A stretch of 64,000 bases of DNA from an uncultured Planctomycetota bacterium (GTDB taxonomy: Bacteria > Planctomycetota > Planctomycetia > Isosphaerales > Isosphaeraceae), in NCBI GenBank assembly GCA_963845755.1, contig CAWJTV010000036.1, positions 224,001-288,000 of the forward strand, given 5' to 3'. The position numbers and the translations under genes were made by a program. Shown one piece after another: positions 49,323 to 64,000 of this stretch (position 1 is the stretch's first letter; each line of letters opens with the position of its first letter). Under the pieces are notes generated by a model that was given only the letters and a program-made list of their open reading frames with translations, was not told the origin of the DNA and did no database searches.

Positions 49323-50050
49323 ATGAAGCTCCCCGGAACGATCACACGCATCATTCGCGACCTGGAGAGCACCGAGCAATTGCGACGCGATGCCGCCGTG
49401 CGAGAACTCTGGGAACGGTTCTTCGCCGACTTGACGGCCTATGCTCGAAAACGCTTGAAGGCGATGAATGCATCGCGAGGTCCGGCGGACGAGGAGGATG
49501 CCGCCTCGCGAGCCTTCATGAAGGTCTGCCGCGGAATCGAGCCGCGGTCAGCTCAAACTGGCCAACCGAGTGGACCTGACGAAGGTCCTGCGGTCGGCCA
49601 CCGCGCGAGAGGTGTTCACGCTGCTCAGCCGGTCAAAGGGATCGGGTGGGCGGCCCATCGACGACATCGCCCTGGGCCAGGTCGTCGACCCGGCCCTTCC
49701 GCCCGACCTCCTCCTCCTGGCCTTCGACGCCTGCCAGCGTCTGCTCGACCTGCTCGAGACCGACGATGTCCGACACGTCGCCATCTGGAAGCTGGCCGGT
49801 CACACCAACGAGGCGATCGCGGTCAAGCTCGACTGCTCGGCAGCCACGGTCGAGCGCACCTTGTCCCACATCCGAGAGACCTGGAGGCGGTCATGGGGCG
49901 ACGCCGTGCCCCGCGGGCCGGCGAAGCCCGGACCTCGACGCGGCTCGAGCGCGCGCGGCGAATCCCATCGCGTCCCCGCTTCCGGGCGTCGATGACATGG
50001 ACGCCGATGCTGCGGCCAGGCTCCTTCGCGACCTCGCCGGGCTGACGTGA
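49323..50050 (+). CDS. ECF-type sigma factor (frameshifted)
   Basis: ELWERFFADL...ADEEDAA; WKLAGHTNEAIAVKLDCSAATVERTL HTH. Confidence 0.8.
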
Positions 50051-50206
50051 TCGCGTGGCCAATCTCGCCTGTGGACCGACTCACCTCTTTCCTCATGATC
50101 CGCATCATGCGAGGCTAGCATCAGCCGCCAGCGGTGCAGGCCGGCGAGCGTCCGCATCGCGCGAGCGGTTCGTGCCCGAATGGGCGTCCAGAAAGCGAGG
50201 CGGATC

Positions 50207-51773
50207 ATGAGGTTGATGTCGCGGGCAGGCTGGCTTGGGGTTGTCGTGGGGCTCGCTGGACTCGTCCCGCGGGCCGGTGCCGCGGAGGGACCCGAGCCGA
50301 TCATCTACGCGATCCGATTCCCGGCGGCCGGCCAGCATATCGCCGAGGTCGAGGCCACGGTCCCGACTCAAGGGCGCCCGGAGATCGCCCTCATGATGGC
50401 GGTCTGGTCGCCGGGATTCTATCGCCTCGAGGACTACGCCCAGAAGATCCAGGGCCTCTCGGCACGGGCCACGAACGGGGCGGCGCTGGGGGTCGAACAT
50501 CCCCAGAAGAACCGCTGGACCATCACGAACACGGGTGGCGGTCCGAAGGTGGTCGTGACGTATCGGCTCACTTGCGATCGCCGGTCCGTCACCACGAACT
50601 GGGTCGGCGAGGACCTCGTCGTCTTGAACGGGGCGGCAACTTGCGTCACGCTGGTCGAGCCGGTCCGCCGTCCTCATGAAGTCCGGCTCGAGTTGCCGGC
50701 TCGTTGCAAGCGTTCGGCGACGGCGATGGATCCGGCCCCCGACGGCCTGCCGAACCACTATCGCGCCGAGGACTATGACACGCTGGTCGATTCGCCGATC
50801 GTCGCCGGAGACCTGTCGATCCACGAGTTCTCGGTCGATGGCAGTCAGCACATCCTCGCGGATGCCGGCGAGGTCGGCCAATGGGACGGCGAGCTCGCGG
50901 CGCGCAATCTGGAGAAGATGGTCGGCGAGGCGCGTCGCTTCTGGGGTTTCTTGCCGTTCCGGCGATACGTCTTCCTCAACGTGTTCCGCCCCGGCGGCGG
51001 CGGGCTGGAGCACAAGAATTCCACGCTGTTGACCGCGAGTCCCCGAGGCGGGAGGGAGCCGGGCTCCGTGCGCTGGCTCTCCTTCATCAGCCACGAGTAT
51101 TTTCATGCGTTCAACGTCAAGCGACTGCGGCCGATCGAGCTGGGACCGTTCGACTACGAGCACCCGCCGTTCAACCAAGAGCCTCTGGATCGCCGAGGGC
51201 CTCACCACCTATTTCGGCGACCTGATCATCAGCCGCGCCGGGCTCGCCAGGCCGAACGACCTCCTGGGCATGCTGTCCTCGCACATCGGGCAACTCCAGA
51301 ACTCGAAAGGACGGCTCGTCCAGACGCTCGAGCAGGCGTCCCTGGACGTCTGGGCCTCCGGGACTTCCGGAGTGGGACGGGACCCCGCCACCAAGCTCAG
51401 CTACTACGTCAAGGGGCCCGTCGTCGGCTTCCTGCTCGACGCCCGGATCCGTCGCGCGACCGGCGGCAAGAAGAGCCTGGATGATGTGATGAGGCACGCC
51501 TACAATCGCTATTCGGGCGACCGTGGTTTCACTCCGGAGCAGTTCCGCGCCGTAGCCGAGGAAGTTGCTGGTGTCGACCTCAAGGAGTGGTATCACAAGG
51601 CGATCGCCTCGACCGAGGAGCTGGATTACCAGGAGGCTCTCGACTGGTTCGGCCTGCGGTTCGCCCCCTCGGACGATCCGTCCAAGGGCTGGAAGCTCGA
51701 GATCCTCGCGGAGGCCACGGAGACGCAGAAAGCACATCTTCGGGCCTGGGCCGAGGCCGCTGGCGGATCTTAG
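50207..51773 (+). CDS. M61 family metallopeptidase (frameshift near 51172)
   Basis: WSPGFY, LVDSP, GGGLEH, HEYFHAFNVKRLRP, LWIAEGLT, SYYVKG. Confidence 0.92.
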
Positions 51774-51955: not shown

Positions 51956-53308
51956 ATGAATATGAGTGACAGCTCCCAGGCGAGCCCGCAAACCCCGTCT
52001 GCCGGTGACGCATTCCCACAGCCCGGCCCGGCTGCCGACTCTTCTCTGGAGGCGAAACCATCGAGGCCCCGGCGCTCGATCCTCCGGAGGCTCTCCGGTC
52101 ACTGGTGGCGGATTCTCCTGCTCTGGCTGGTGGTGTCCACTCCCCTGGCCTATATGATCTACGTGGTCGTCGAGCCGACCTACGAGGCATTCAGCTTGCT
52201 CCAGGTTGAGCCAACGAAGACGATGCTCTTCTCGGTTGATGTGCAAGGCATCGCCGACCGCAGGGACGACGAGCCCTACCTCCAGACGCAAGTGCAACTG
52301 ATCACCAGCGATGTAGTGCTCGACCAGGCCCTCTCCCGTGACGCCCGGATCGCCAGGCTCCCGATGATCAAGGAGTCGGAGGACCCGAAGGCCGATCTTC
52401 GCAAGAAGATGGAGGTCGGGATCGTGAACAAGAACACCTACCTGATCCGGGTCGCCCTGGCCTCCGGGAATCCCGAAGAGGCGGCCATGATCGTCAACGC
52501 GGTGGTCAACGCCTACATGGATCAGCATACCGAGTATCACCGGTCCGCCAACAAGGCGCTCCACAAGAGCTTGGCCGAGGAGCTCGAGAAGCTGGCCAAG
52601 GAGATCCTTGAGAAGAAGAACGAGCTGAAGAACCTGGACCATGGGGCCGCCATCGCGAGCCATGTGATGACACGGCCGGTTGCCGCGAAGAAGGACGACC
52701 TGGGAATCCCGTCGCTCGATGTCATCTCGGAAGAGCAGTTTGCCAGGGTGGTCGACCGATTGTCCCAGGCCGACCTCGAACTGATCGATGCCCAGGCGAA
52801 GCTCGAGACGGCCAGGCTCGCCCGGAAAGCCCGCGAGGCCAGACCGGACGATCAACCCGCGATTGCCGAAGGCTCGAAGCAGGCGGCCGAGGAGAAGATC
52901 CAGGAGCAGGAGGCTGCCGTAGAGGAGATCAAGAGGAAACGGATCGGCTACTTGCAGTACCTCGAGAAGGCGAAGGTTCAAACCCGTTTCAAGAACAACG
53001 ACACCCTCGCCGCGGGGATGGTGAACCAGGAGCTGTCGAGCTTGCTGAAGATGCAGGAGATCATCAACCAGAAGCTCGAGCAACTGAATTTCGAGACCAA
53101 GCAGGACGTGTATCGCATCTCTCAGCACGACCGTGCGGGAGTGCCGAAGGTCCCTTCGAATAATATGCGACTCAGGTACATGGCCGCGGCGCCCGTGGGC
53201 GTCCTGTTCCTGATTCTCGGCTGGTTTCTGATCGTGGAGATCAAGGCAGGGCCGGTCGCCGATCCGAAGGAGCTGTCCTCGAGGAAGTACACGACCCGCG
53301 AACTTTGA
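51956..53308 (+). CDS. GumC/Wzz-like polysaccharide co-polymerase domain protein (no kinase domain)
   Basis: TM, PTYEAFSLLQVEP, YLQTQVQLITSDVVL, AAMIVNAVVNAY, coiled coil, second TM. Confidence 0.8.
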   Translation: MNMSDSSQASPQTPSAGDAFPQPGPAADSSLEAKPSRPRRSILRRLSGHWWRILLLWLVVSTPLAYMIYVVVEPTYEAFSLLQVEPTKTMLFSVDVQGIADRRDDEPYLQTQVQLITSDVVLDQALSRDARIARLPMIKESEDPKADLRKKMEVGIVNKNTYLIRVALASGNPEEAAMIVNAVVNAYMDQHTEYHRSANKALHKSLAEELEKLAKEILEKKNELKNLDHGAAIASHVMTRPVAAKKDDLGIPSLDVISEEQFARVVDRLSQADLELIDAQAKLETARLARKAREARPDDQPAIAEGSKQAAEEKIQEQEAAVEEIKRKRIGYLQYLEKAKVQTRFKNNDTLAAGMVNQELSSLLKMQEIINQKLEQLNFETKQDVYRISQHDRAGVPKVPSNNMRLRYMAAAPVGVLFLILGWFLIVEIKAGPVADPKELSSRKYTTREL

Positions 53309-54080: not shown

Positions 54081-54096
54081 TGGCACGAGGATTGCA
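54081..54096 (+). promoter_or_regulatory. Sigma-54 (-24/-12) promoter
   Basis: TGGCACGAGGATTGCA matches TGGCAC-N5-TTGCW exactly, 60 bp before the ATG at 54156. Confidence 0.85.
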
Positions 54097-54155
54097 ATTC
54101 CTACACATCAGTTCGCTGTTACCTAGGTCTCAACATGTTTTTGGAGTGTTCAATC

Positions 54156-55482
54156 ATGCACGACATCGACAGGACCCAACTCCAGTCCGGGGTACGGCTC
54201 GGCGAGCAAGAGGCCGGTTACCAGGAGTTTGAATCCGAGCTCTACGAGTCCGAGGGGGAAGGTGAAGCGGAATCCGAGATGTTCTACGAGGGCGAGGCCT
54301 ACGAGTCCGAGGGCGAGCAGTTCTACGAGGCCGAGGGCGAGCAGTTCTACGAGGCCGAGGGCGAGCAGTTCTACGAGGCCGAGGGCGAGGCCTACGAGGC
54401 CGAGGGCGAGGCCTACGAGGCCGAGGCCGAGCAGTTCTACGAGTCCGAGGCCTGGGAAATGGAGATGGCCGCCGAACTGCTGGCGGTCCGAGACGAGGCG
54501 GAACTCGAGCAGTTTCTCGGCGGCCTGGTGAGCGGGCTCTCGGGCCTTGCTAAGAAGGCCGCTCCGTTCCTCGGTTCTGCTCTGAAGACGGTTGCCAAGA
54601 AGGCTCTGCCTGTTGTCGGCGGGGCTTTGGGAGGGCTCGCCGGAGGCCCGATCGGTGCCCAACTCGGCAGCCAGCTCGCGAGCACTGCGGGCAATATGTT
54701 CGGGCTCGAGCTCGAAGGTCTCAGCTACGAAGACCAGGAGTTCGAAGCCGCGAAGGGGTTCGTTCGTTTCGCGAACGATGCGGCGAATATCCTGCAAGAG
54801 ACCGCCCATCACCACTCCACCCCGAAGAAAGCGGCGCATGCCGCTATGAGCGCGTCTGCCAAGAAGAATGCGCCGGACTTCACGGCTCGCCCTCGTCGCA
54901 CAAGGGCGGAGGAGCACCACGCCATAACGGAGCTCACGCGTCGCATCACGCGGGTCCGAAGCCGCCGCACCATGCGGGTCCGAAGCCGTCGCACCACCCG
55001 GGTGCACACCACCCCGGTTCGCCTCACCCGCACCACCCCGGTTCGCCTCACCCGCACCACCCGGGTGCGCGCACCACCCCGGTTCGCCTCACCCGCACCA
55101 CCCGGGTGCGCACCACCCCGGTTCGCCTCACCCGCACCACCCGGGTGCGCACCACCCCGGTTCGCCTCACCCGCACCACCCGGGTCACCGGCCGCGGCAT
55201 CCCCACGTTGGGGCGCCGGGCACAGGCGTTGCGACGGGGCCAGGTCCCGGATGGCGCGGGCCACACTTCGGGCCGTTCCCTGGCCTACCGGGGATCGACG
55301 TTCAGGGTCCAGGTGGATTGACCATAGACGGGATCTTCGGCTATCCGCCTGGCACCTCGGGTCCGGGTCCAGGCGCGGAGGGCACCGGCCAGGGTGGCCC
55401 GGCCGTGGGACGGGGTTGCGTGGGGAACGCGACGGGTCGGTGGTATCGCCGTGGTGACAAGATTGTCCTGGTCGGGGTCTAG
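54156..55482 (+). CDS. Uncharacterised acidic-repeat / Gly-zipper / His-Pro-repeat protein (two frameshifts, near 54875 and 55070)
   Basis: SD GGAG; MHDIDRTQ; (EAEGEQFY)n; EMEMAAELL...ELEQFLGGL; Gly zipper; HHPGSPHP repeats in shifted frame; ends GRWYRRGDKIVLVGV* 3 nt before the next ATG. Confidence 0.8.
54280..54452 (+). repeat. 24-nt and 21-nt coding tandem repeats (EQFYEAEG / EAYEAEG)
   Basis: GAGCAGTTCTACGAGGCCGAGGGC x3 and GAGGCCTACGAGGCCGAGG repeats. Confidence 0.9.
54935..55190 (+). repeat. 24-nt and 39-nt coding tandem repeats (HHPGSPHP / HHPGA)
   Basis: CACCACCCCGGTTCGCCTCACCCG about 5 copies. Confidence 0.9.
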
Positions 55483-55485
55483 CCA

Positions 55486-56820
55486 ATGGTCGATCACCCT
55501 ATCGCCAACCGGCTGCTGGCCGACGAGGCCCGCGCCCTCCTGACTCGCCTGGGACGCGTCAAGTCGTTCGCGCTGAACGAGACGATGGTCCCGGCGGCTG
55601 CGCTGTCGCTGCTGGCGCAAACGGCCATCGAGCATCAGCTCGCGGGAGGTCGGCGTGCCCTGCGGCGACGGGTGAACGACTACCTGTGCTGGCTCTGCGG
55701 GCCGGGCGGCCGTGCAGCCTCCCCCGCCGAGGCGCACCGACGGTTCAGCCTGCTCCGCATGCTGTTCAATGCCGGGCTCGCTCAATTCGACCTGTTCTCA
55801 CAGGTCGTCACACAACGCAGCGAGAATGAGATCGGGGTGTGGCTTTCCGGGCTCGACTACGTCGCCGAGGATGCGCTGGAGCTGCCCGGTTACTACGAGG
55901 CCCCACCCCTGGCTTGCTACCTCGATCGCGGCCCCGGGGCCGCCATCCGGCGGGCACGTACCCGGCTGCCCGGAGGAGGTGAGAACCCGGTCGCGATCAT
56001 CCGCGTCCCGCGCGAGCGGATGATCGGCAGTGCCATCGCCTCGTCGCTGGTCCACGAGGTCGGCCACCAGGCCGCGGCCCTGCTCGACCTGGTCCCGTCG
56101 CTCCGCTCCGCGCTTCGCCGCGTGGGCCGCCGCGCCGACAACAAGGACGTCTGGAACGTCTTCGATCGTTGGATCTCCGAGATCGTGGCGGATTTCTGGG
56201 CGATGGCCCGGCTTGGGATCGGCGCGACCCACGGGCTGATGGCTGTGGTCAGCCTCCCGCGCGCCTTCATGTTCCGCGTCAAGGCCAACGACCCGCACCC
56301 GTCCCCTTGGATCCGTGTCAAGCTGAGCTGTGCCCTGGGCCGGGCCCTCTTCCCCGACCCCCAGTGGGACCGACTGGCTGAACTTTGGGATTCGTACTAT
56401 CCGCTCGAAGGTCTGACGGGGACGGTCCGGGATCTCCATCGGCGGCTCGAAGGGGCATTACCCGAGTTTGTCGACCTGTTGATCCGGCACCGTCCGGCGT
56501 CGTTACACGGCCAGGCGCTGGGGGAGGTTATGCAGTCGGAGAAACTTCAGCCGCATCGGCTCATGGCTCTGTACCGGACCTGGAAGGCCGCACCCGCGAT
56601 GCTCCGCCGGGCCCCGCCGACACTGGTGTTCGCCGTCATCGGCCAGGCCCGGGCCGATGGTGAGATCAGCCCGGAACTGGAGTCCCGGGTCCTCTCCAGC
56701 CTGCTCACGTACTGGGCCCTGCGCAGCAACCTCGATACTTCCGAAATTTGTGCGACGCGGGGACCTCGCATTGCGCTCGTCCCCGCTCGTGAAACACTTG
56801 CAATCCAACACAGAAGGTGA
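55486..56820 (+). CDS. Conserved hypothetical with HEXXH motif (putative zincin metallopeptidase)
   Basis: SSLVHEVGHQ, downstream WISEIVADF (possible third ligand Glu) and DPHP. Confidence 0.75.
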   Translation: MVDHPIANRLLADEARALLTRLGRVKSFALNETMVPAAALSLLAQTAIEHQLAGGRRALRRRVNDYLCWLCGPGGRAASPAEAHRRFSLLRMLFNAGLAQFDLFSQVVTQRSENEIGVWLSGLDYVAEDALELPGYYEAPPLACYLDRGPGAAIRRARTRLPGGGENPVAIIRVPRERMIGSAIASSLVHEVGHQAAALLDLVPSLRSALRRVGRRADNKDVWNVFDRWISEIVADFWAMARLGIGATHGLMAVVSLPRAFMFRVKANDPHPSPWIRVKLSCALGRALFPDPQWDRLAELWDSYYPLEGLTGTVRDLHRRLEGALPEFVDLLIRHRPASLHGQALGEVMQSEKLQPHRLMALYRTWKAAPAMLRRAPPTLVFAVIGQARADGEISPELESRVLSSLLTYWALRSNLDTSEICATRGPRIALVPARETLAIQHRR

Positions 56821-56824
56821 ACCC

Positions 56825-58585
56825 ATGGCACGACGTAGAAGAGATCGCCAGAACTTCGACCCCCTGAACCCGCAGCCGCCTTTCTCGTCGCCGGTGAGCC
56901 CGGAGTCGATCATCCCGCCGATCACGAACCCCGAGCCGATCATCCCGCCGGCAGAGGAGCTCGGGACGGGGCCGGAGGGTGACTTGACGGAGGACCTCGC
57001 GAGGTTTGTGCCCGTACGCCCCGAGGTCAACGTCCGGCTCGCCCAACCGGCGGGAATCAACCCGACGTTGGACCAGGGCCTCTGGATCGCGATCCGCAAC
57101 ACCGCCCAGAGGACCTCCTTCGAGCATTACCGCCTGTTCATCGACCGGGTCCTGTGCCAGCCGGACAGTCCCCGCATCGGTTCCGACGACGGCCCGGATG
57201 ATGAAATCGCGGGTCTGGTCCGCACGGCGCAGTGGCCCCATAGCAAAGGGGGCCTCGGCTTGCACGCCTACGGCGTCAACGCGTACAACATCCTCAGGCT
57301 TGCGACCGAGACGTTCCTGCTGATGCGGTGCGGCGTCGCGATCCGGGGCCACTACCGCCCGGATTGGGATGAAGCCCGGCTCTATCAGCGTTTCAGCGCC
57401 GAGGACGCCTGTGGCATGCTCCAGAGCTATCTGAGGGAGCCGGGGGCGATCCTGCCCTACCTCGAACAGGTCTTCAACGCCCTGGATGCCACAGACCGGC
57501 AGACGTTGACACCGGGAAGGGACGACGTCAACTCGCCCTTCTGCATCATGCCTCTCATCCAGAGGATCACAGCACCCTGCCTCGTCGAGCTGATCTGGTC
57601 GTACTGGCACGAGCAAGGCATGCTGGTGCAAACGATGAATGCGATCAGCATGCGATTCCAGAACAAGCGGTCCAGCCCCGGTGCCAAGGACCCGCTGGCA
57701 ACCATGGAGATCGACCCGCTCCGGCCGGTCAATAACCTGCTCTGGGGATTCGTCCAGGACGAGTTCAACCGGCTGAGCGTCCCGCGTCGATCCAGCGAGT
57801 ACGACCATCAGTACGGGCTCAAGCTCGTGGGTCGCGCCGTGCCCGGCGCACCCGCCGCGGACAGCCGCTCGAAATTCCTCGAAGCGTTCCACGACCTGAT
57901 GATGCGCACCAAGCTCTTCTACGATGAGGACGCGGATCGCACCATTGAGTCGAATGCGTTTCCGCTGCTCAACGGCCTCCGCGAGGTCCACCTCCTGCTG
58001 GCCGAGGGCGCGCACAACCAGTTCGGCGACCTGCCCTGGACCGCCCGCGTCGAGATGCTGATCCAGCAGTATTTGCTGGCACGGCCCGAGATGCGGGAAT
58101 TCCTCGGAGGACGCGTGATGGTGCCTTACCCCGAGCCCTGGATGGGCCGCGTGGACACCATGAAGGCCCTCCAGGGGTGGACCGACGTCCCCGTCCTGCA
58201 CTTCCGCAACCTCGGGGTCTACGCGGAACAGATCCTGCTCTCGATCCGCTACGGTGACTGGGTCGACGTCATCGACCACGACCGGGCGCGGAACTGGGCA
58301 CGGTTCTGGAGACCGGAGATCGAGGGATATGTCCACACCTACCGCGTCGTCACGGGCGTGGATTTGACGACGGCCACGACGGTCGACTCGACTCAGCCCG
58401 CGATCCTGGTGGGCCGCCGCCTCCAAGGCTACGGCCGTACGTCGCGAGCGGTGCGGGTCGTGGACGCCACACCCCGGCCCCAGTCGCTGCCCGGGGCGCC
58501 GGCGCCGACCCAGCGCACGATCGCGTCGCTGACGAAGCCTTCGCAGAACGGCATCCCCGATAGCCGCGTGAAGTCGAAGTCCTGA
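56825..58585 (+). CDS. Conserved hypothetical protein (586 aa)
   Basis: Long intact ORF 4 nt after the previous stop, SD GAAGGTGA, low-complexity N-terminus, aromatic-rich core (ELIWSYWHEQG, EYDHQYG, EGAHNQFGDLPW). Confidence 0.8.
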   Translation: MARRRRDRQNFDPLNPQPPFSSPVSPESIIPPITNPEPIIPPAEELGTGPEGDLTEDLARFVPVRPEVNVRLAQPAGINPTLDQGLWIAIRNTAQRTSFEHYRLFIDRVLCQPDSPRIGSDDGPDDEIAGLVRTAQWPHSKGGLGLHAYGVNAYNILRLATETFLLMRCGVAIRGHYRPDWDEARLYQRFSAEDACGMLQSYLREPGAILPYLEQVFNALDATDRQTLTPGRDDVNSPFCIMPLIQRITAPCLVELIWSYWHEQGMLVQTMNAISMRFQNKRSSPGAKDPLATMEIDPLRPVNNLLWGFVQDEFNRLSVPRRSSEYDHQYGLKLVGRAVPGAPAADSRSKFLEAFHDLMMRTKLFYDEDADRTIESNAFPLLNGLREVHLLLAEGAHNQFGDLPWTARVEMLIQQYLLARPEMREFLGGRVMVPYPEPWMGRVDTMKALQGWTDVPVLHFRNLGVYAEQILLSIRYGDWVDVIDHDRARNWARFWRPEIEGYVHTYRVVTGVDLTTATTVDSTQPAILVGRRLQGYGRTSRAVRVVDATPRPQSLPGAPAPTQRTIASLTKPSQNGIPDSRVKSKS

Positions 58586-58612
58586 GCCGGTCGGCGCGGT
58601 CGCCGGCCCGGG

Positions 58613-58645
58613 CCTGGCGTTCGGTCGCGACGACCGAACGCCAGG
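58613..58645 (+). other. Perfect 15-bp-stem hairpin between operon genes 3 and 4
   Basis: CCTGGCGTTCGGTCG-CGA-CGACCGAACGCCAGG; no U-tract. Confidence 0.8.
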
Positions 58646-58718
58646 ATGGGCCGAGCATACCGCGTCGTGGAGCGCGCCGGTCCGGGCCGATTGGATCTGT
58701 AACCTGGTGGTCACACGG

Positions 58719-59852
58719 ATGCTCGATTTCAGCTCGTCGCTCTACCTGGGCTTGCGGCACGCAAGCCGATCGCTGGCCGCGTGGGATCGATTGACGGAGG
58801 GAAAGCCGTCGGCCCTCGATGAGCCCCCAGGCGCCGCGGCCGTGGCCGCAGCAATGTCCGTCCTCACCGGCTGCGAGCGGGCGGTCCTCCTCCCCTCGAC
58901 GTTGCATCTATTCTGGGATCTGTTCGGCATGCGGGCTGGCGACGCCATCGCCATTTACGTCGACGCCGGCACCTACCCGATCGCCCGTTGGGGCGTCGAG
59001 CGGGCGGCGGCGCGGGGGACAACCGTGCGATACTTCGCCCATCACGACGCGCACGCTTTGGGGCGTCTCCTCTTGCACGAGACACGGAGGGGCGTCCGGC
59101 CTCTCGTCGTCGCCGACGGATTCTGCCCACGGTGCGGGCGCGCGGCGCCGGTGCCGGAATACCTCGAGGCGACCCGCACGTTCGGCGGCTCGCTGCTGAT
59201 CGATGATACACAGGCCCTCGGCATCTTCGGCCACTCGCCCGGCCCGGATTCGCCCTACGGCCACGGTGGCGGTGGGACGTCGCGGCGGTGGGACGTCGCG
59301 GGCCCCGATGTCTTGATCGGTGCCTCGATGGCCAAGGCCTTCGGCACGCCGGTCGCCGTCCTGTGCGGGGCCGCGGCCGAAGTCCGCCGCTTCATGACGC
59401 TCGGCGAAACCCGCGTGCATTGCAGCCCGCCCTCCGTGGCGAACATCCGCGCGGCGGCCCACGCCCTGGAGCTCAATCGTACCTGCGGCGACGCCTTACG
59501 GCTCCGCCTGGCCGGCCTCGTCGGCCGGTTCCGCGCCCGCCTTGCCGAGCGCGGACTCTCCGCGTCGGGTGGCCTCTTCCCCGTGCAGCGCGTCGCGGTC
59601 CCGCCGGGGCACGACGCATCCCTGCTGCACCGGCACTTGCTCCGGCTCGGCGTCCGGGCTGTCCTCGTGCGCGACGCCCCCCGCCGCAGCCCGGGACTTT
59701 GCTTCCTGATCAATGCGCGTCAACATCCTTGTGTGATCGACCGAGCGGCCGGTGCCCTCGCGTCTGCGTTGAGAAGATCCCCACTTGTTTCGAGGCCCAG
59801 TGACCATCCCGCCCCGCGTCCTTCGCCCGTGGGCGGCGGTTTCCAGTCGTAA
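58719..59852 (+). CDS. PLP-dependent class II aminotransferase / alpha-oxoamine synthase (BioF-like, divergent)
   Basis: LDFSSSLYLGL, FAHHD, IDDTQALG, SMAKAFG (PLP lysine). Confidence 0.85.
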   Translation: MLDFSSSLYLGLRHASRSLAAWDRLTEGKPSALDEPPGAAAVAAAMSVLTGCERAVLLPSTLHLFWDLFGMRAGDAIAIYVDAGTYPIARWGVERAAARGTTVRYFAHHDAHALGRLLLHETRRGVRPLVVADGFCPRCGRAAPVPEYLEATRTFGGSLLIDDTQALGIFGHSPGPDSPYGHGGGGTSRRWDVAGPDVLIGASMAKAFGTPVAVLCGAAAEVRRFMTLGETRVHCSPPSVANIRAAAHALELNRTCGDALRLRLAGLVGRFRARLAERGLSASGGLFPVQRVAVPPGHDASLLHRHLLRLGVRAVLVRDAPRRSPGLCFLINARQHPCVIDRAAGALASALRRSPLVSRPSDHPAPRPSPVGGGFQS

Positions 59853-59882
59853 GACATGGCGAAGACCAAGAGGAGAATCATC

Positions 59883-61406
59883 ATGGGATGCGGCTGCAAA
59901 CACGGGCACGGTCCGAATGCTTTCGACCTGAGCCATCTCGAGGTTGGAGAGGGTGAGGTCGCCTTGCCCATCTCCGCCATGTTCGAGCTGGGAGAACTGG
60001 AACAAGAGCGGCGCGGGTTCGGGAGGGCCCCACGCCGGGCCTCCGTGGCGCGGCCGCGGATGAGGCGACGGGCACCATCGGCGCCGATGGCCCGCCCGAA
60101 GGGTCAAGCGTCGCTGTTGCGGCGCAAAACCCTGGGACATGCGGCCCAGGGGGCGGGAAAGCACCTGGCGACTAAGAGGCGCACACAACAACAAGCCAGG
60201 CCCGGCGGCTTTCCCGGCGCTCAGAGGAGGTTCCGTAGAGGCCGATCGCCCTTGGGCCCTGCCGCCCCCATCGGTGGACTGGCCATGGCCCCGAACCCGG
60301 TGATCTTGAACCGCCGTTATTCCGACCAGTTGGGATGGCGGGCCTATTACAACCAGATCCTCACACTGCTCGGACCCCTCGCCACGGGCGGCGAATCGGC
60401 ATTCGTCCAGGCCGTTGCGCAGTGGCAAGCGACCAAGGGCCTGCCCGCGAATGGGGTGCTCGATCCGACGAGCTGGGCTCAGATGCAGGGCGATCTGGCG
60501 GCCGGTCCGGCTGCCCCGCCACTCGCTCCGCTTCCCGCCGCGCTGGAGCCGCCCGACGCGGCGCTACCGCTTGGAGCCGAGCCGCCCCCATTGGCAGAGC
60601 CTGCTCCACTCGGCGGCGAGATGGAATGGGAGTCCGAATCGGGCTCTCGATACACCCGGCCGGCATCGCGGCGCTGGGCTCACTGCCCTCCTACGGCGGA
60701 AATGCCTCCAACCGAGCGCACCGTGCTGGCAGTGACGAGTCGACTCCAGACCGGTAAGCCTTTTGCCTGCACAGTCTCCGCTCACGACGGCATCTCGATG
60801 GGCCTGATCCGGTGGAATCTCCGGAATGGCACGCTCCAGCGACTGCTGGCGCGCTTCGAAAACCGGAGCGGTCGGCTCATCCGGTTCTTCCGTGCCGACT
60901 ACGACCGACTCATGGGACTGATCGCCCTGCGTCACTCGGCACCCCAGCGAGGTCGGGCCGTCGCGGTGGCATTCGCGGATCGGCTGGCCGATCGCTGGCG
61001 CGGTCCCCTGCTCTCCCTCTTCTCCGACACGACCTTCTACTCAATGCTGATGCAGGACGTTCGCGGCCGCCTCGCCGCGGCCAAGGGTGCTGCACGGCGA
61101 CTGGGCGTGTGGACCGTACGTGGCCTGGCCCTGTTGTTCGACATCGCCGCCTGCGAGGGCCTCGGCCGATCGAAGATCGCGCGACTCGCCGCCCGCCTCC
61201 GGCGTCTCGAGGCGACCAGGGGGCCACTCTCCGAGCAGGAGAAGCTCGTCGCCATCGTCGATGAATCCGTCCGTCGCCTGGCCCGTCATCGCGATGAGCG
61301 ACGCGCCCTTCGGATGGTGATCGCGACCGGCTCGGGACCGGCTCGGGGCCGGTGGTGGGACCTCGGCCGCGACTATGCCAACCTCGACGCCCCGTGGGAA
61401 TCGTGA
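59883..61406 (+). CDS. Peptidoglycan-binding domain plus lysozyme-like domain protein
   Basis: FVQAVAQWQATKGLPANGVLDPTSW (PG-binding) and DGISMGLIRWNLRNGTLQRLL...RGLALLFDI. Alternative start at 59856. Confidence 0.65.
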   Translation: MGCGCKHGHGPNAFDLSHLEVGEGEVALPISAMFELGELEQERRGFGRAPRRASVARPRMRRRAPSAPMARPKGQASLLRRKTLGHAAQGAGKHLATKRRTQQQARPGGFPGAQRRFRRGRSPLGPAAPIGGLAMAPNPVILNRRYSDQLGWRAYYNQILTLLGPLATGGESAFVQAVAQWQATKGLPANGVLDPTSWAQMQGDLAAGPAAPPLAPLPAALEPPDAALPLGAEPPPLAEPAPLGGEMEWESESGSRYTRPASRRWAHCPPTAEMPPTERTVLAVTSRLQTGKPFACTVSAHDGISMGLIRWNLRNGTLQRLLARFENRSGRLIRFFRADYDRLMGLIALRHSAPQRGRAVAVAFADRLADRWRGPLLSLFSDTTFYSMLMQDVRGRLAAAKGAARRLGVWTVRGLALLFDIAACEGLGRSKIARLAARLRRLEATRGPLSEQEKLVAIVDESVRRLARHRDERRALRMVIATGSGPARGRWWDLGRDYANLDAPWES

Positions 61407-61474
61407 GGTTCGCCGGCGGTGGCTCCGTCCCGATCATTGACGGTTATCGTCGCGCGGAAACGGGCGGGGACCCC

Positions 61475-61577
61475 CTGGGGGCATCGCCTTTCGGGCTCGA
61501 CCCCAGCTATCTCCGGTCTGGCTCCGAGAGCCGCGGGGTGGCTGGGGTCGAGCCGGCATTGCCGCGCTGCCCCCAGA
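61475..61577. repeat. REP-like inverted repeat pair between convergent genes
   Basis: GGCTCGACCCCAGC...GCTGGGGTCGAGCC with flanking CTGGGGGC / GCCCCCAG. Confidence 0.65.
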
Positions 61578-61653
61578 ATCGCCGCAGGCGTGAAGAGGTT
61601 CACCGCGGTGGTCGTCTGCGGAACCGGCGGGATCTCGATCACGAGAGACGCCC

Positions 61654-63054
61654 TCAGGCGTCGTGCCGGCCGTTGCCATTGCCATCGCCGTCCTGTTGAC
61701 GGCGGGAGGCCCGGCGGAGCTGGAGGGTTCGGTCGGTCACGCCGAGCCGCCGCGCCGCACGTTGCAAGTTCCCGTCCTCGGCCGCGACGGCGTTCCGCAC
61801 GGCCACGTCCTCGGCGACGCGGCCGATGTCCTTCAGGCCGACACCCCAGGCCAGGGCCTTGCGGATCGTCCTCTCGAACATCTCATCGCACCAATCGTCC
61901 GGCCGGTCGGACGGATCCGGTCGTTCGTCCTCGGGGACGTCGCCGACGGTGATCGGGGCCGGTCCCACGTGGCGGCAGGCGATCCGCGAGATTAATTGCC
62001 GGAGGTCACGCACGTTACCCGGATACGTCCGTCGCAGCAGGTACTGACGAACCGGCTCGTCCAGTTCGATGGCTCCCAGGTCGGGCCGGAACTGGGTGAG
62101 GAAGTGGCGTGTTAGCGGCAAGATGTCTTCCACTCGCTCGCGCAATGGAGGAAGCTTGCATGTGCATCCGGCGATTCGGTAGTAGAAATCGCGTCGGAAG
62201 CGGCCCTGGGCCTCTTCCTGGAGCAGGTCCCGGTTGGTGGCGCAGACCAGGCGGAAGTCGGTCTTTTCCCAGGAATTGCTCCCCACGCGCTTGTAAGTCC
62301 GCTCCTGCACGACGCGGAGCAAGTCGGCCTGGAGCATCAGGGGGAGCTCGCCGACCTCGTCGAGGAACAGCGTCCCGCCATGAGCCAGGGCGAAGGCGCC
62401 GTCGCGCGCGGCGACGGCGTTGGTGAACGCCCCGCGCTCGTGGCCGAAGAATTCGCTACCGGCCAGCTCGGGGACGATCGTCGTGCAGTCCAGGATGACG
62501 AGATCGCCCTTGTTGGACCGCCGGTCGAGCGTGTGGAGCAGGCGCGCCACCAACTCCTTCCCCGTCCCGCTCTCGCCGGTGATCATCACGGCGGCATCGG
62601 TGAATACGGCGACTTCGATGACCTGGCGCAGGGCCATCGTCCAGGCAGGGCTGCATCCGACCAGGTTGCCAGCAACCAGGGAGGAGCGTACCAGGTCGTC
62701 CACCGAGGCCCATCGCCGCAGCCGGCGCAGATCGCAGCGCCCGCATCGGCCCCGCCGTTCCAGGCGATGACGTCGGAGGCTCCCACCTTGAGCAGCGACC
62801 ACGACGAGCCGTCTGCCAGTGGCTCGGCCGAGATCGCGACGGCCAGCACTCTCCCCAGGCCATTTCGGCTGAGCTGGCGGACCTGATCGTAGACCGAAGG
62901 GCCGAGCCGATCGAAGACGACCAGCCCAGGGCCCGACGGTTCCTCGCTCTCCAGCGGTGAGGCCTCGATCCGCTCGCGCAAGCCGAGCGATGAGGTCCGA
63001 CCTCAGTGTGCCCTTTCCGTGCGTGTGAAAGTTGACCCAGATCTTGGTCGGCAT
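61654..63054 (-). CDS. Sigma-54-dependent transcriptional activator (bEBP; frameshifted N-terminus)
   Basis: GESGTGKE, SEFFGHERGAFTNA, GTLFLDEVGE, ATNRDL, FRRDFYYR, YPGNVRDL, Fis-type HTH; degenerate receiver-like N-terminus. Confidence 0.92.
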   Translation of the reverse strand: MPTKIWVNFHTHGKGTLRSDLIARLARADRGLTAGERGTVGPWAGRLRSARPFGLRSGPPAQPKWPGESAGRRDLGRATGRRLVVVAAQGGSLRRHRLERRGRCGRCDLRRLRRWASVDDLVRSSLVAGNLVGCSPAWTMALRQVIEVAVFTDAAVMITGESGTGKELVARLLHTLDRRSNKGDLVILDCTTIVPELAGSEFFGHERGAFTNAVAARDGAFALAHGGTLFLDEVGELPLMLQADLLRVVQERTYKRVGSNSWEKTDFRLVCATNRDLLQEEAQGRFRRDFYYRIAGCTCKLPPLRERVEDILPLTRHFLTQFRPDLGAIELDEPVRQYLLRRTYPGNVRDLRQLISRIACRHVGPAPITVGDVPEDERPDPSDRPDDWCDEMFERTIRKALAWGVGLKDIGRVAEDVAVRNAVAAEDGNLQRAARRLGVTDRTLQLRRASRRQQDGDGNGNGRHDA

Positions 63055-63600: not shown

Positions 63601-64000
63601 CTAACGGTTCAGGTACCGGTTCGCGAGCCACAGTTGCTGAACGGCCCACGCCAATTCGCGGCCGTCGATCGAGATCTCGCAACGACGTTCCAGCGGATCC
63701 TCCTCATGGCTCTGGGCCTTGGTGTCCCCGACCGCCTGGATCAGGTTCGTATCCATGTTGGGGACGCCCCTGCGCTTCAGCCAGTCCACCACCGCGGCCT
63801 TCCGCTTCTCGGAGAGTTTCTGATTGTATCGGATTCGGTCCGCCGCATTGCCCCGGTATGCCACGCTCGCCCTGGCCTCGCCGCGCACGGGCAGCAATCC
63901 GCTGTCAAGGGCGACGCGCACCTCGTAGGTGGATACCAGGCTTTCATGGATGAACCTGTCGAGGTTGTCTCCGTCGTCTCTGCGGTGGCCATTCCGGTCC
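63601..64000 (-). CDS. OmpA-like C-terminal domain protein (5' part outside window)
   Basis: RAS...YNQKLSEKRKAAVVDWLKRRGV...AVG...RRCEI. Confidence 0.6.
   Translation of the reverse strand, partial: DRNGHRRDDGDNLDRFIHESLVSTYEVRVALDSGLLPVRGEARASVAYRGNAADRIRYNQKLSEKRKAAVVDWLKRRGVPNMDTNLIQAVGDTKAQSHEEDPLERRCEISIDGRELAWAVQQLWLANRYLNR

Follow-up and report, generated by a model that had tools for sequence, protein, structure and literature searches.

Organization of the locus

The window, a stretch of 64,000 nucleotides (nt) of DNA from an uncultured Planctomycetota bacterium (positions 224,001 to 288,000 of contig CAWJTV010000036.1), contains near its end five co-oriented genes, g1 to g5, that lie behind a sigma-54 promoter and are followed by a convergent gene for a sigma-54 activator, which closes the locus. 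An earlier note on this DNA, made from the sequence alone, had singled out both the promoter and the gene arrangement, and both are as it described them. The promoter (TGGCAC-N5-TTGCA) is an exact -24/-12 element and the sole match in the whole window, with 0.03 matches expected in shuffled windows (a match was seen in 3 of 100 shuffles), and successive genes are separated by 3, 4, 133, and 3 nt, the last gap being 30 nt if g5 starts at its second ATG (59883). No sigma-70 promoter was found at the locus, and terminator-like sites occur at chance level. The features of the locus, in window coordinates, are as follows.

54081..54096 (+): sigma-54 -24/-12 promoter of the operon; exact consensus, unique in the window
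54156..55482 (+): g1, core acidic precursor; ATG at 54156, about 440 amino acids (aa) if read across two frameshifts
54156..54512 (+): acidic leader of g1, 119 aa, net charge of -39, ending in ELEQ; read from the sequence
54513..54716 (+): predicted mature core of g1, 68 aa, FLGG to LELE; cleavage predicted from the sequence
55486..56820 (+): g2, core HEXXH protein, predicted zinc metallopeptidase, 444 aa
56825..58585 (+): g3, core all-helical protein, 586 aa; no family and no clear fold match
58719..59852 (+): g4, optional pyridoxal phosphate (PLP) enzyme of the alpha-oxoamine synthase type, 377 aa
59856..61406 (+): g5, variable cargo, 516 aa
61654..63054 (-): dedicated enhancer-binding protein (AAA+, helix-turn-helix, GAFTNA variant; Sigma54_activat E value of 2.9e-55)

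A three-gene core conserved across seven phyla

Our comparison covers 24 loci from genomes, 80 of 551 metagenome matches, 2 loci from a phylum sample, and 3 of 4 plasmid hits; all of these were retrieved using g3, whose presence is therefore true by construction, and the locus counts are not independent because some loci are near-copies. Presence was counted only in loci with enough flanking sequence (for g1, 4 kb upstream of g3; for the activator, an amidohydrolase, and RpoN, the 26 longest loci). On this basis, g2 stands beside g3 in 72 of 72 loci and g1 is present in 56 of 56, with at least two g1 matches in 37 of them, and the gene order g1-g2-g3 is constant. The 24 genome loci span Planctomycetota, Myxococcota, Pseudomonadota, Chloroflexota, Actinomycetota, Rhodothermota, and Acidobacteriota, such that co-occurrence in other genomes, which the earlier note had set in advance as one test of its proposal, extends over seven phyla.

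The remaining genes are less constant. Among the 26 longest loci, a close orthologue of the activator lies near g3 in 25, an amidohydrolase gene in 16, and RpoN in 11; g4 occurs in 47 of 64 loci, and a whole orthologue of g5 occurs in 1 of the 24 genome loci, which marks g5 as interchangeable cargo. Judged from this synteny, the conserved unit is g1-g2-g3 together with the promoter and the activator, whereas g4, the amidohydrolase, and an M20 enzyme are optional and the cargo slot is variable. The five-gene system of the earlier note thus stands as far as its three-gene core, promoter, and activator are concerned, but not for g4 or g5.

The g3 family comprises at least 4963 sequence clusters and the g2 family at least 5517 (8000 candidates scored for each), and the named members among them are hypothetical proteins or are named merely for an added domain. 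The system is patchily distributed: it is present in 2 of 400 genomes sampled from the host phylum, and 60 relatives searched for g2 yielded no close g2 and one distant one. Four plasmid records contain a g3 match, and none was found among 50,697 phage records. In a g2 tree (22 rows, with 9 of 19 inner branches open), clustering by phylum exceeds that of shuffles and Planctomycetota appear in two places, a pattern that does not prove horizontal transfer. At one locus (L008:16-12484), two copies of the operon lie back to back in divergent orientation, which may be real or an assembly artifact.

A distant subtype (L117:4664-13519; G435:C3) contains a g2 relative (E value of 3e-35) with HECGH, SEMAAD, and DPHP, situated behind a 620-aa acidic protein that has EQ-FLGG and a cationic amphipathic stretch (profile probability of 56%). 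It also has a 90-aa gene, a broken gene that occupies the place of g3 and has no significant similarity to it, and then OmpA and peptidoglycan-binding genes with acidic regions; no sigma-54 site was found in the 400 nt upstream, and a gene for a sigma factor like those of the extracytoplasmic function (ECF) group lies nearby. This layout indicates that the logic of g1, g2, and cargo reaches beyond the family of g3. We found no description of the operon in the open literature (subscription journals and supplements, e.g., of PMC7159879 or PMC3482391, being outside that scope), and it represents a real, widespread, and apparently undescribed system.

Regulation by sigma-54

Allowing one mismatch at most, a -24/-12 site was found in 47 of 65 loci in the 300 nt that precede the first g1, usually 60 to 95 nt away from it; by the same criterion, such a site precedes 9 of 357 other genes and 1 of 71 cargo genes and is seen in 0.8% of shuffles. 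The activator of the window has the AAA+ domain, GAFTGA-type loop, and helix-turn-helix that define sigma-54 enhancer-binding proteins; in 45 sequences, the loop reads GAFTGA in 37, GAFTNA (as in the window copy) in 5, and GSFTGA in 3.

Linkage to RpoN was counted in the long loci, which make up 19 of the 24 genome loci. A linked RpoN gene occurs in 6 of 7 from Actinomycetota, 4 of 4 from Chloroflexota, and the 1 alphaproteobacterial locus (1/1), and in 0 of 7 from Planctomycetota, Myxococcota, and Rhodothermota; the host genome of the window has a single RpoN, unlinked to the locus. In the genomes of L003, L016, and L017, the RpoN of the locus is the only sigma-54 match genome-wide. Actinomycetota are described in the accessible text of one source as effectively without RpoN (PMC12316311), and, to judge from gene content, the cassette brings its own RpoN into this phylum.

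We also considered whether actinobacterial RpoN genes are generally part of the system and rejected this idea: 12 of 400 sampled genomes have a match to the sigma-54 DNA-binding domain, and 0 of those have a g2 match. Seven of the 400 sampled genomes (G515, G530, G675, G688, G727, G774, and G818, from the phylum of G454) contain sigma-54 matches of 186 to 197 bits that are unrelated to the system. Elsewhere in the host genome, a 16-base site identical to the operon promoter occurs at C15:47560 (-); it precedes two related small genes that are apparently unrelated to the system.

A putative masked precursor and its candidate peptidase

The family consensus of g1 runs from MHDxDR through an acidic leader, EEMELAAELL, the boundary ELEQ-FLG, and an amphipathic and glycine-zipper core to LELE-GLS, EFE-VARRFVR, a helix, APGLL, a variable linker, and a C-terminal motif, GRWxRRGxxIxLxGV, that is present in 85 of 109 sequences; the three internal junction sites match in 70, 56, and 59 of the 109. 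The window copy consists, in order, of the acidic leader, a cationic Gly-rich core, the second conserved helix, a His/Pro linker, and the C-terminal motif. In the 34 of 109 sequences that have both core boundaries, the core has a median length of 73 aa and a charge of +8.5 (range, 0 to +16), against a median of -23.5 for the leader, and the 68-aa core of the window copy, with its amphipathic start and putative glycine zipper, has a net charge of +5 without its last four residues. The Gly-zipper_Omp model matches 11 of 70 g1 members (best E value of 0.0008), whereas Pfam, NCBIfam, and PHROGs returned only compositional tape-measure matches and a PDB profile search returned nothing credible. From its charge pattern and layout, g1 looks like a masked peptide of the bacteriocin type. 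The cargo slot also holds segments resembling g1, in one case opening a 956-aa protein that has peptidoglycan-binding and VanY domains (L040:7595-10462) and in another forming a gene of their own (L112:23439-24164), which suggests that g1 can act as a carrier domain.

In g2, residues H190, E191, H194, E232, and D236 are invariant in 133 sequences, and H271-P272 (of DPHP) is invariant in a 67-row domain alignment. The structural model (mean confidence score [pLDDT] of 89.8) consists of an N-terminal three-helix bundle, two strands, the HEXXH helix (residues 182 to 199), and a Glu helix (220 to 243). An HEXXH helix with a downstream Glu ligand on a second helix is the layout that we take to be that of gluzincins, and g2 is accordingly predicted to be a zinc metallopeptidase with gluzincin-type residues; it is also the only conserved candidate protease of the operon. 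Searches of Pfam, NCBIfam, and PHROGs gave no meaningful match to g2, nor did PDB searches with profiles of g2 or of its catalytic region give a credible one; Foldseek had no match, and VIA matched only the N-terminal bundle, which filled the whole-protein searches. A complex prediction for the g1 core, g2, and g3 scored 0.00 with the g1 fold uncertain and is not used as evidence. The host genome also encodes, at C11:800835-803600 (L026), a 921-aa protein with a twin-arginine-like start, a distant HEXXH domain of the g2 type (E value of 1e-13), and a C-terminal CHAT domain, i.e., a g2-like peptidase fused to a caspase-like domain.

Variable cargo with a shared junction motif

The cargo slot, defined as the region between g3 or g4 and the regulators, comprises 73 open frames from our own gene caller, 67 of which were scanned (two minus-strand frames, two duplicates, and two short frames were left out). 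The most frequent Pfam families are PG_binding_1 (29 of the 67), OmpA (8), M20 peptidase (5), Amidase_2 (4), DUF2272 (4), VanY (3), phospholipase D (3), and trypsin-like peptidase (2), followed by one cargo each with an M23, muramidase, glucosaminidase, calpain, metallophosphatase, GIY-YIG, or cysteine-desulfurase-type domain; 18 of the 67 have no Pfam family. In the accessible text of PMC10318531, DUF2272 is grouped with the NlpC/P60-CHAP amidases. Only 1 of 69 cargo has a hydrophobic N terminus, versus 78 of 298 neighboring genes, and a membrane helix is predicted in 3 of 73 cargo-slot genes. By domain assignment, then, most cargo would bind peptidoglycan, break down walls, or act as lipases; they lack signal peptides, and a locus often has several of them. 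Their combination of a constant targeting element with variable effector domains is that of polymorphic toxins in general.

Cargo leaders are rich in Glu and aromatic residues and end in [W/L/F/M/Q]-E-x-E, after which come a hydrophobic residue and an Arg-rich stretch. In its strict form, this junction is present in 24 of 67 cargo versus 1 of 298 other neighboring genes, and Glu occupies position -3 in 30 of 41 acidic cargo leaders versus 6 of 57 other acidic starts (background, 23%), counts that are to be read with the motif having been defined after the cargo were inspected, with related loci not being independent, and with starts taken from our own gene caller. In both trypsin-like cargo, E-x-E directly precedes IIPPRD or ILGADD, where the mature N terminus of a chymotrypsin-fold enzyme is expected, which gives the motif independent support. 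Junctions also recur ahead of internal domains, and g5 has two (ELEQE-RRGFGR and EWESE-SGSRY). The processing step proposed in the earlier note is thus supported by sequence. A genome-wide leader scan of the host gave 6 hits, none of them convincing, and it missed g5 because the basic start of g5 defeats the filter.

The cargo of the window, g5, consists of a Cys-rich start, ELEQE (59994-60008), an Arg-rich stretch, a weak peptidoglycan-binding domain, EWESE (60624-60638), and a C-terminal domain with 11 relatives in a protein search. The peptidoglycan-binding match scores 19.5 bits, below the Pfam cutoff of 23; the C-terminal domain has no Pfam match, and a distant homologue of it matches chitosanases at nonsignificant E values of 0.13 to 1.4. 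Its candidate catalytic Glu is Gln in the window and, in 10 close relatives, is E in 4, Q in 2, G in 2, and A in 2. The C terminus is possibly a degenerate lysozyme-like domain, and the earlier description of g5 as a peptidoglycan-binding, lysozyme-like protein holds only in this attenuated form. In several cargo and in one g1 copy, a Cys cluster (CxC or CxxC) precedes the acidic leader (window 59886-59903; also in L001, L044, L046, and L112), a possible metal-binding or redox tag.

The helical protein g3

The g3 model is all-helical (pLDDT of 79) with disordered termini. Residues H356, H389, N398, and Q399 are invariant and E353, E387, and H397 nearly so, and their placement on a helical hairpin suggests a metal site. 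Some homologues have extra N-terminal domains (e.g., PF13620, carboxypeptidase-regulatory-like, in 13 of 120 hits). No meaningful match was obtained in Pfam, NCBIfam, or PHROGs, a PDB profile search gave nothing credible, and Foldseek gave no match at an E value of 0.001 in PDB or BFVD. The best VIA matches are weak helical bundles (2RDC, Z score of 5.7, root mean square deviation of 3.8, 100 residues aligned; TIPE1, 8GYN, Z score of 4.3); three of these weak fold matches are described as lipid-binding or related proteins, and the matches lie within the chance range for helical proteins. The structural check that the earlier note had envisaged for g1 to g3 yielded models of g2 and g3 but no Foldseek match for either, and blank searches with whole-protein models do not show a new fold.

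The nearest neighbors of g3 by protein language model are the capsids of partitiviruses and picobirnaviruses (0.91 to 0.92), which raises the question of whether g3 (or g1) self-assembles into a particle or compartment, with the acidic leaders being loading tags rather than masks that are cut off. The disordered termini of g3 and its variable N-terminal additions would suit such an assembly, as surface decorations. However, the recognition score of 870 falls far under the guide value of 2300, no capsid fold is listed by Foldseek in PDB, by Foldseek in BFVD, or by VIA, and the position of the junctions at the mature N terminus of trypsin-like cargo indicates cleavage. We regard a particle as quite unlikely, and the packaging function proposed in the earlier note, for which the weak capsid likeness is the only lead, found no backing in the three fold searches.

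Optional enzymes

Over most of its length, g4 aligns to BioF, from residue 42 on and without the first ~40 residues (E value of 2e-12 to BioF chains), and it scores 52.6 bits against TIGR00858 (BioF), whose cutoff is 426.45. The family retains the PLP lysine (SxxKxxG in 53 of 54 sequences) and has DD[TS]Q in place of the DDAH of BioF in 47 of 54 (DDTQ in the window copy). From these residues, g4 is a member of the alpha-oxoamine synthase superfamily (PLP fold I), and its BioF-like character was correctly noted before. BioF being its best family match, ordinary metabolism, namely, biotin synthesis, or else a chance cluster had to be considered; this explanation is already refuted for all practical purposes by the low score, the loss of DDAH and of the N-terminal segment, two far better BioF candidates elsewhere in the host genome (413.5 and 363.2 bits), and synteny conserved in seven phyla. 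In several Solirubrobacterales loci, g4 and the amidohydrolase gene occur with no cargo gene.

The altered PLP pocket of g4, the leader-core layout of g1, the conserved His/Glu cluster of g3, and the weak matches of g3 to lipid-binding bundles could also be explained by a ribosomal-peptide pathway, in which g1 would be the precursor, g2 would remove its leader, g3 would be a new metal-dependent modifier, and g4 would add an acyl-amino-ketone or a similar group, with the cargo borrowing the leader. Against this, 17 of 64 loci have no g4 and 10 of 26 no amidohydrolase, the fold matches of g3 do not exceed chance, and no exporter recurs, and we judge the pathway decidedly improbable.

Reading-frame breaks and neighboring genes

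The frame of g1 is broken twice, near 54877 and near 55066, and its His/Pro repeat and conserved C-terminal motif are readable only across these two frameshifts. The activator frame is open end to end, with its N-terminal domain in another frame from ~62980 to ~62725 (two compensating frameshifts). We consider the frameshifts in both genes to be probably assembly errors, because the frames beyond the breaks are still conserved between the locus and its nearest relative (L001), because two more genes of the window look similarly split, and because splits of core genes concentrate in one series of bins (7 of 25 core genes in nine bins of that series versus 0 of 255 in other loci). L001, which is itself among those nine bins, breaks at two of the same sites as the window locus, so that a shared real or programmed frameshift is a possible alternative; exact-sequence look-ups found no intact near-identical g1.

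The two other genes that seem to be divided between two frames, as indel errors in the assembly would produce, encode an M61 peptidase (50180-51773; whole in L001) and an ECF-sigma-like protein (49323-49995). A Wzz-like chain-length-determinant gene (51962-53308) is syntenic with L001 and lies outside the system. Upstream of the activator and co-oriented with it is a gene for a 348-aa protein (63601-64000, -, continuing to position 288647 of the host contig, C36) with a weak C-terminal OmpA-like domain (E value of 0.0066); it is absent from L001, has no acidic leader, and adjoins a transposase-like fragment.

A candidate pro-toxin system

Our favored interpretation, to which we assign a probability of about one in two, is that the locus encodes an inducible antibacterial pro-toxin system in which g2 strips acidic masks from a membrane-active peptide and from polymorphic lytic enzymes. 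Transcription of the locus as one unit would be turned on by its activator, together in many hosts with a private RpoN; g1 and the cargo would be made in the cytoplasm, where their strongly acidic leaders would mask cationic segments that seek membranes or walls. Acting in trans, g2 would cut after the E-x-E(Q) junctions, freeing from g1 a cationic glycine-zipper peptide of ~70 residues and a cationic C-terminal piece and, from the cargo, domains that bind peptidoglycan, lyse walls, or act as lipase, nuclease, or protease. Membranes would then be permeabilized by the g1 peptide, such that lytic cargo reaches the target wall. In this scheme, g3 would be an obligatory partner (scaffold, chaperone, or metal-dependent modifier), and g4, the amidohydrolase, and M20 would be optional tailoring or signaling enzymes; export would occur through lysis of the producer, which is our guess, and the victims would be other cells. 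Supporting this interpretation are the co-occurrence of the core, the promoter, the cargo classes, the junctions, the g2 residues, and the patchy spread; cross-phylum synteny and recurrence of the promoter, together with the cargo classes and junctions, likewise bear out the earlier view of a self-contained, sigma-54-driven module for acidic-tagged, envelope-directed proteins.

Several observations weigh against a pro-toxin system. Besides the manner in which the junction motif was defined, 43 of 67 cargo-slot genes, including M20 enzymes and likely miscalled starts, fail the strict junction, and Glu-specific trypsin-like enzymes could cut themselves, so that the two trypsin-like cases do not single out g2. 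Neither sequence searches nor fold searches, the latter with the whole-protein model, link the catalytic domain of g2 to a known peptidase. The g1 core matches no bacteriocin family in family and PDB profile searches and is only mildly hydrophobic, with a best 19-residue mean of at least 1.6 in 2 of 109 sequences. Some loci have little or no lytic cargo (the 18 cargo without a family and the cargo-free Solirubrobacterales loci), and g5 itself may be catalytically dead, to judge from its substituted Glu. Finally, when 463 noncore genes were clustered, no transporter, holin, or immunity family recurred in three or more loci; an ATPase-like cluster occurs in 7 loci, outside the cargo slot.

The lack of a recurrent exporter or immunity gene, together with the lack of signal peptides in the cargo, is what would be expected if the same processing were aimed at the producer itself, as programmed lysis or envelope remodeling (in differentiation, dispersal, or abortive defense), with the g1 peptide being holin-like and the cargo endolysins. 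Cargo that are mostly wall-binding or wall-lytic, and an all-or-none sigma-54 switch with a private RpoN, would also fit a lethal program. However, the polymorphic cargo, of which a locus often has several and among which nuclease, protease, and phosphatase domains occur, resemble an arsenal rather than a lysis cassette, and g3 is unmatched among the phage records. On balance, we consider self-lysis unlikely, but it is compatible with a pro-toxin system, since toxin release may need lysis.

A more ambitious version of the pro-toxin interpretation, which we offer tentatively as a possibility with the odds against it, is a new delivery system without a known secretion machine: the acidic E-x-E leader would be a portable address open to any enzyme, g2 the maturase, and matured g1 peptides assembled with g3 a membrane-penetrating carrier that brings wall-lytic enzymes of the polymorphic kind to other cells. 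Here, g3 would have a new helical fold on which Ig-like heads can be exchanged, the cassette would work in any phylum thanks to its own sigma factor, and there would be at least one distant second subtype.

Through the operon, two unannotated protein families acquire a genomic setting, a motif that a protease is predicted to recognize, and a catalog of cargo, all of which can be tested in hosts available in culture (Arthrobacter sp. Leaf137, Palleronia pelagia, Paraburkholderia phymatum STM815, and Rhizobium sp. CCGE532). If our interpretation is correct, soil bacteria would have a new way of antagonizing one another or of lysing in a programmed manner; the system would also offer a new maturase with Glu specificity, a large set of wall hydrolases and candidate antimicrobial peptides that can be recognized from the leader, and a portable cassette for sigma-54 expression that functions in Actinomycetota.

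Comparison with known systems

Among known systems, the polymorphic toxins of PVC and other extracellular contractile injection systems (eCIS), as far as they are covered in the accessible text of PMC3482391, resemble the locus in combining constant machinery with variable toxin domains, in having an HEXXH peptidase and OmpA and glucosaminidase domains, and in often lacking immunity genes. There, the HEXXH peptidase (PVC-metallopeptidase) is fused to the toxin, which it is proposed to release, and delivery is by a phage-tail syringe (same text of PMC3482391); here, the peptidase is a separate gene without a Pfam match, the acidic E-x-E leader is shared, and no tail or secretion genes are linked. 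The locus thus has neither the linked phage-tail genes nor the toxin-fused PVC-metallopeptidase by which these systems are recognized, nor does it have the adjacent immunity genes and known export route that are otherwise characteristic of polymorphic toxins. It could instead be a loading or chaperone module that serves a contractile injection system (type VI or extracellular) whose genes lie elsewhere, given that the host genome encodes tail-sheath and VipB homologues away from the locus and that PVC systems are reported, in the text cited above, with OmpA and glucosaminidase toxin domains and without immunity genes (PMC3482391). Yet a tail-sheath match is missing in 4 of 5 carrier genomes searched, the genomes of L003, L016, and L017 (completeness not given) have no sheath or VipB match, and no tail or sheath genes recur near the locus, which makes such a module very improbable.

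In its sequence, g4 is like BioF, KBL, SPT, and CqsA in aligning along most of BioF and retaining the PLP lysine, and unlike the alpha-oxoamine synthases in lacking the first ~40 residues, in its DD[TS]Q motif, and in scoring far under every family cutoff. The acidic leader of g1 invites comparison with the precursors of animal antimicrobial peptides, in which an anionic pro-piece neutralizes a cationic amphipathic peptide until proteolysis; this is an analogy only, and no homology is claimed. The bacteriocin Cdz of Caulobacter, to go by the accessible text of PMC5380434, has two short proteins (CdzC/D, 84 to 86 aa), type I export, and a membrane immunity protein. Like Cdz, the loci have one or two leader-bearing precursors with a putative glycine zipper that are predicted to be membrane active after leader removal; unlike Cdz, g1 has 200 to 440 aa, a long acidic leader, and further domains, is accompanied by lytic cargo, and has no type I exporter or immunity gene (comparison limited to the same text of PMC5380434). 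With respect to regulation, the closest comparison is with RpoN3/AprX of Cereibacter, in which, according to the accessible text, a sigma-54 paralogue and one activator serve a small regulon (PMC11999139). In the present system, as set against the accessible portions of both sources, sigma factor, activator, and target move as one cassette, even into Actinomycetota (PMC11999139; PMC12316311).

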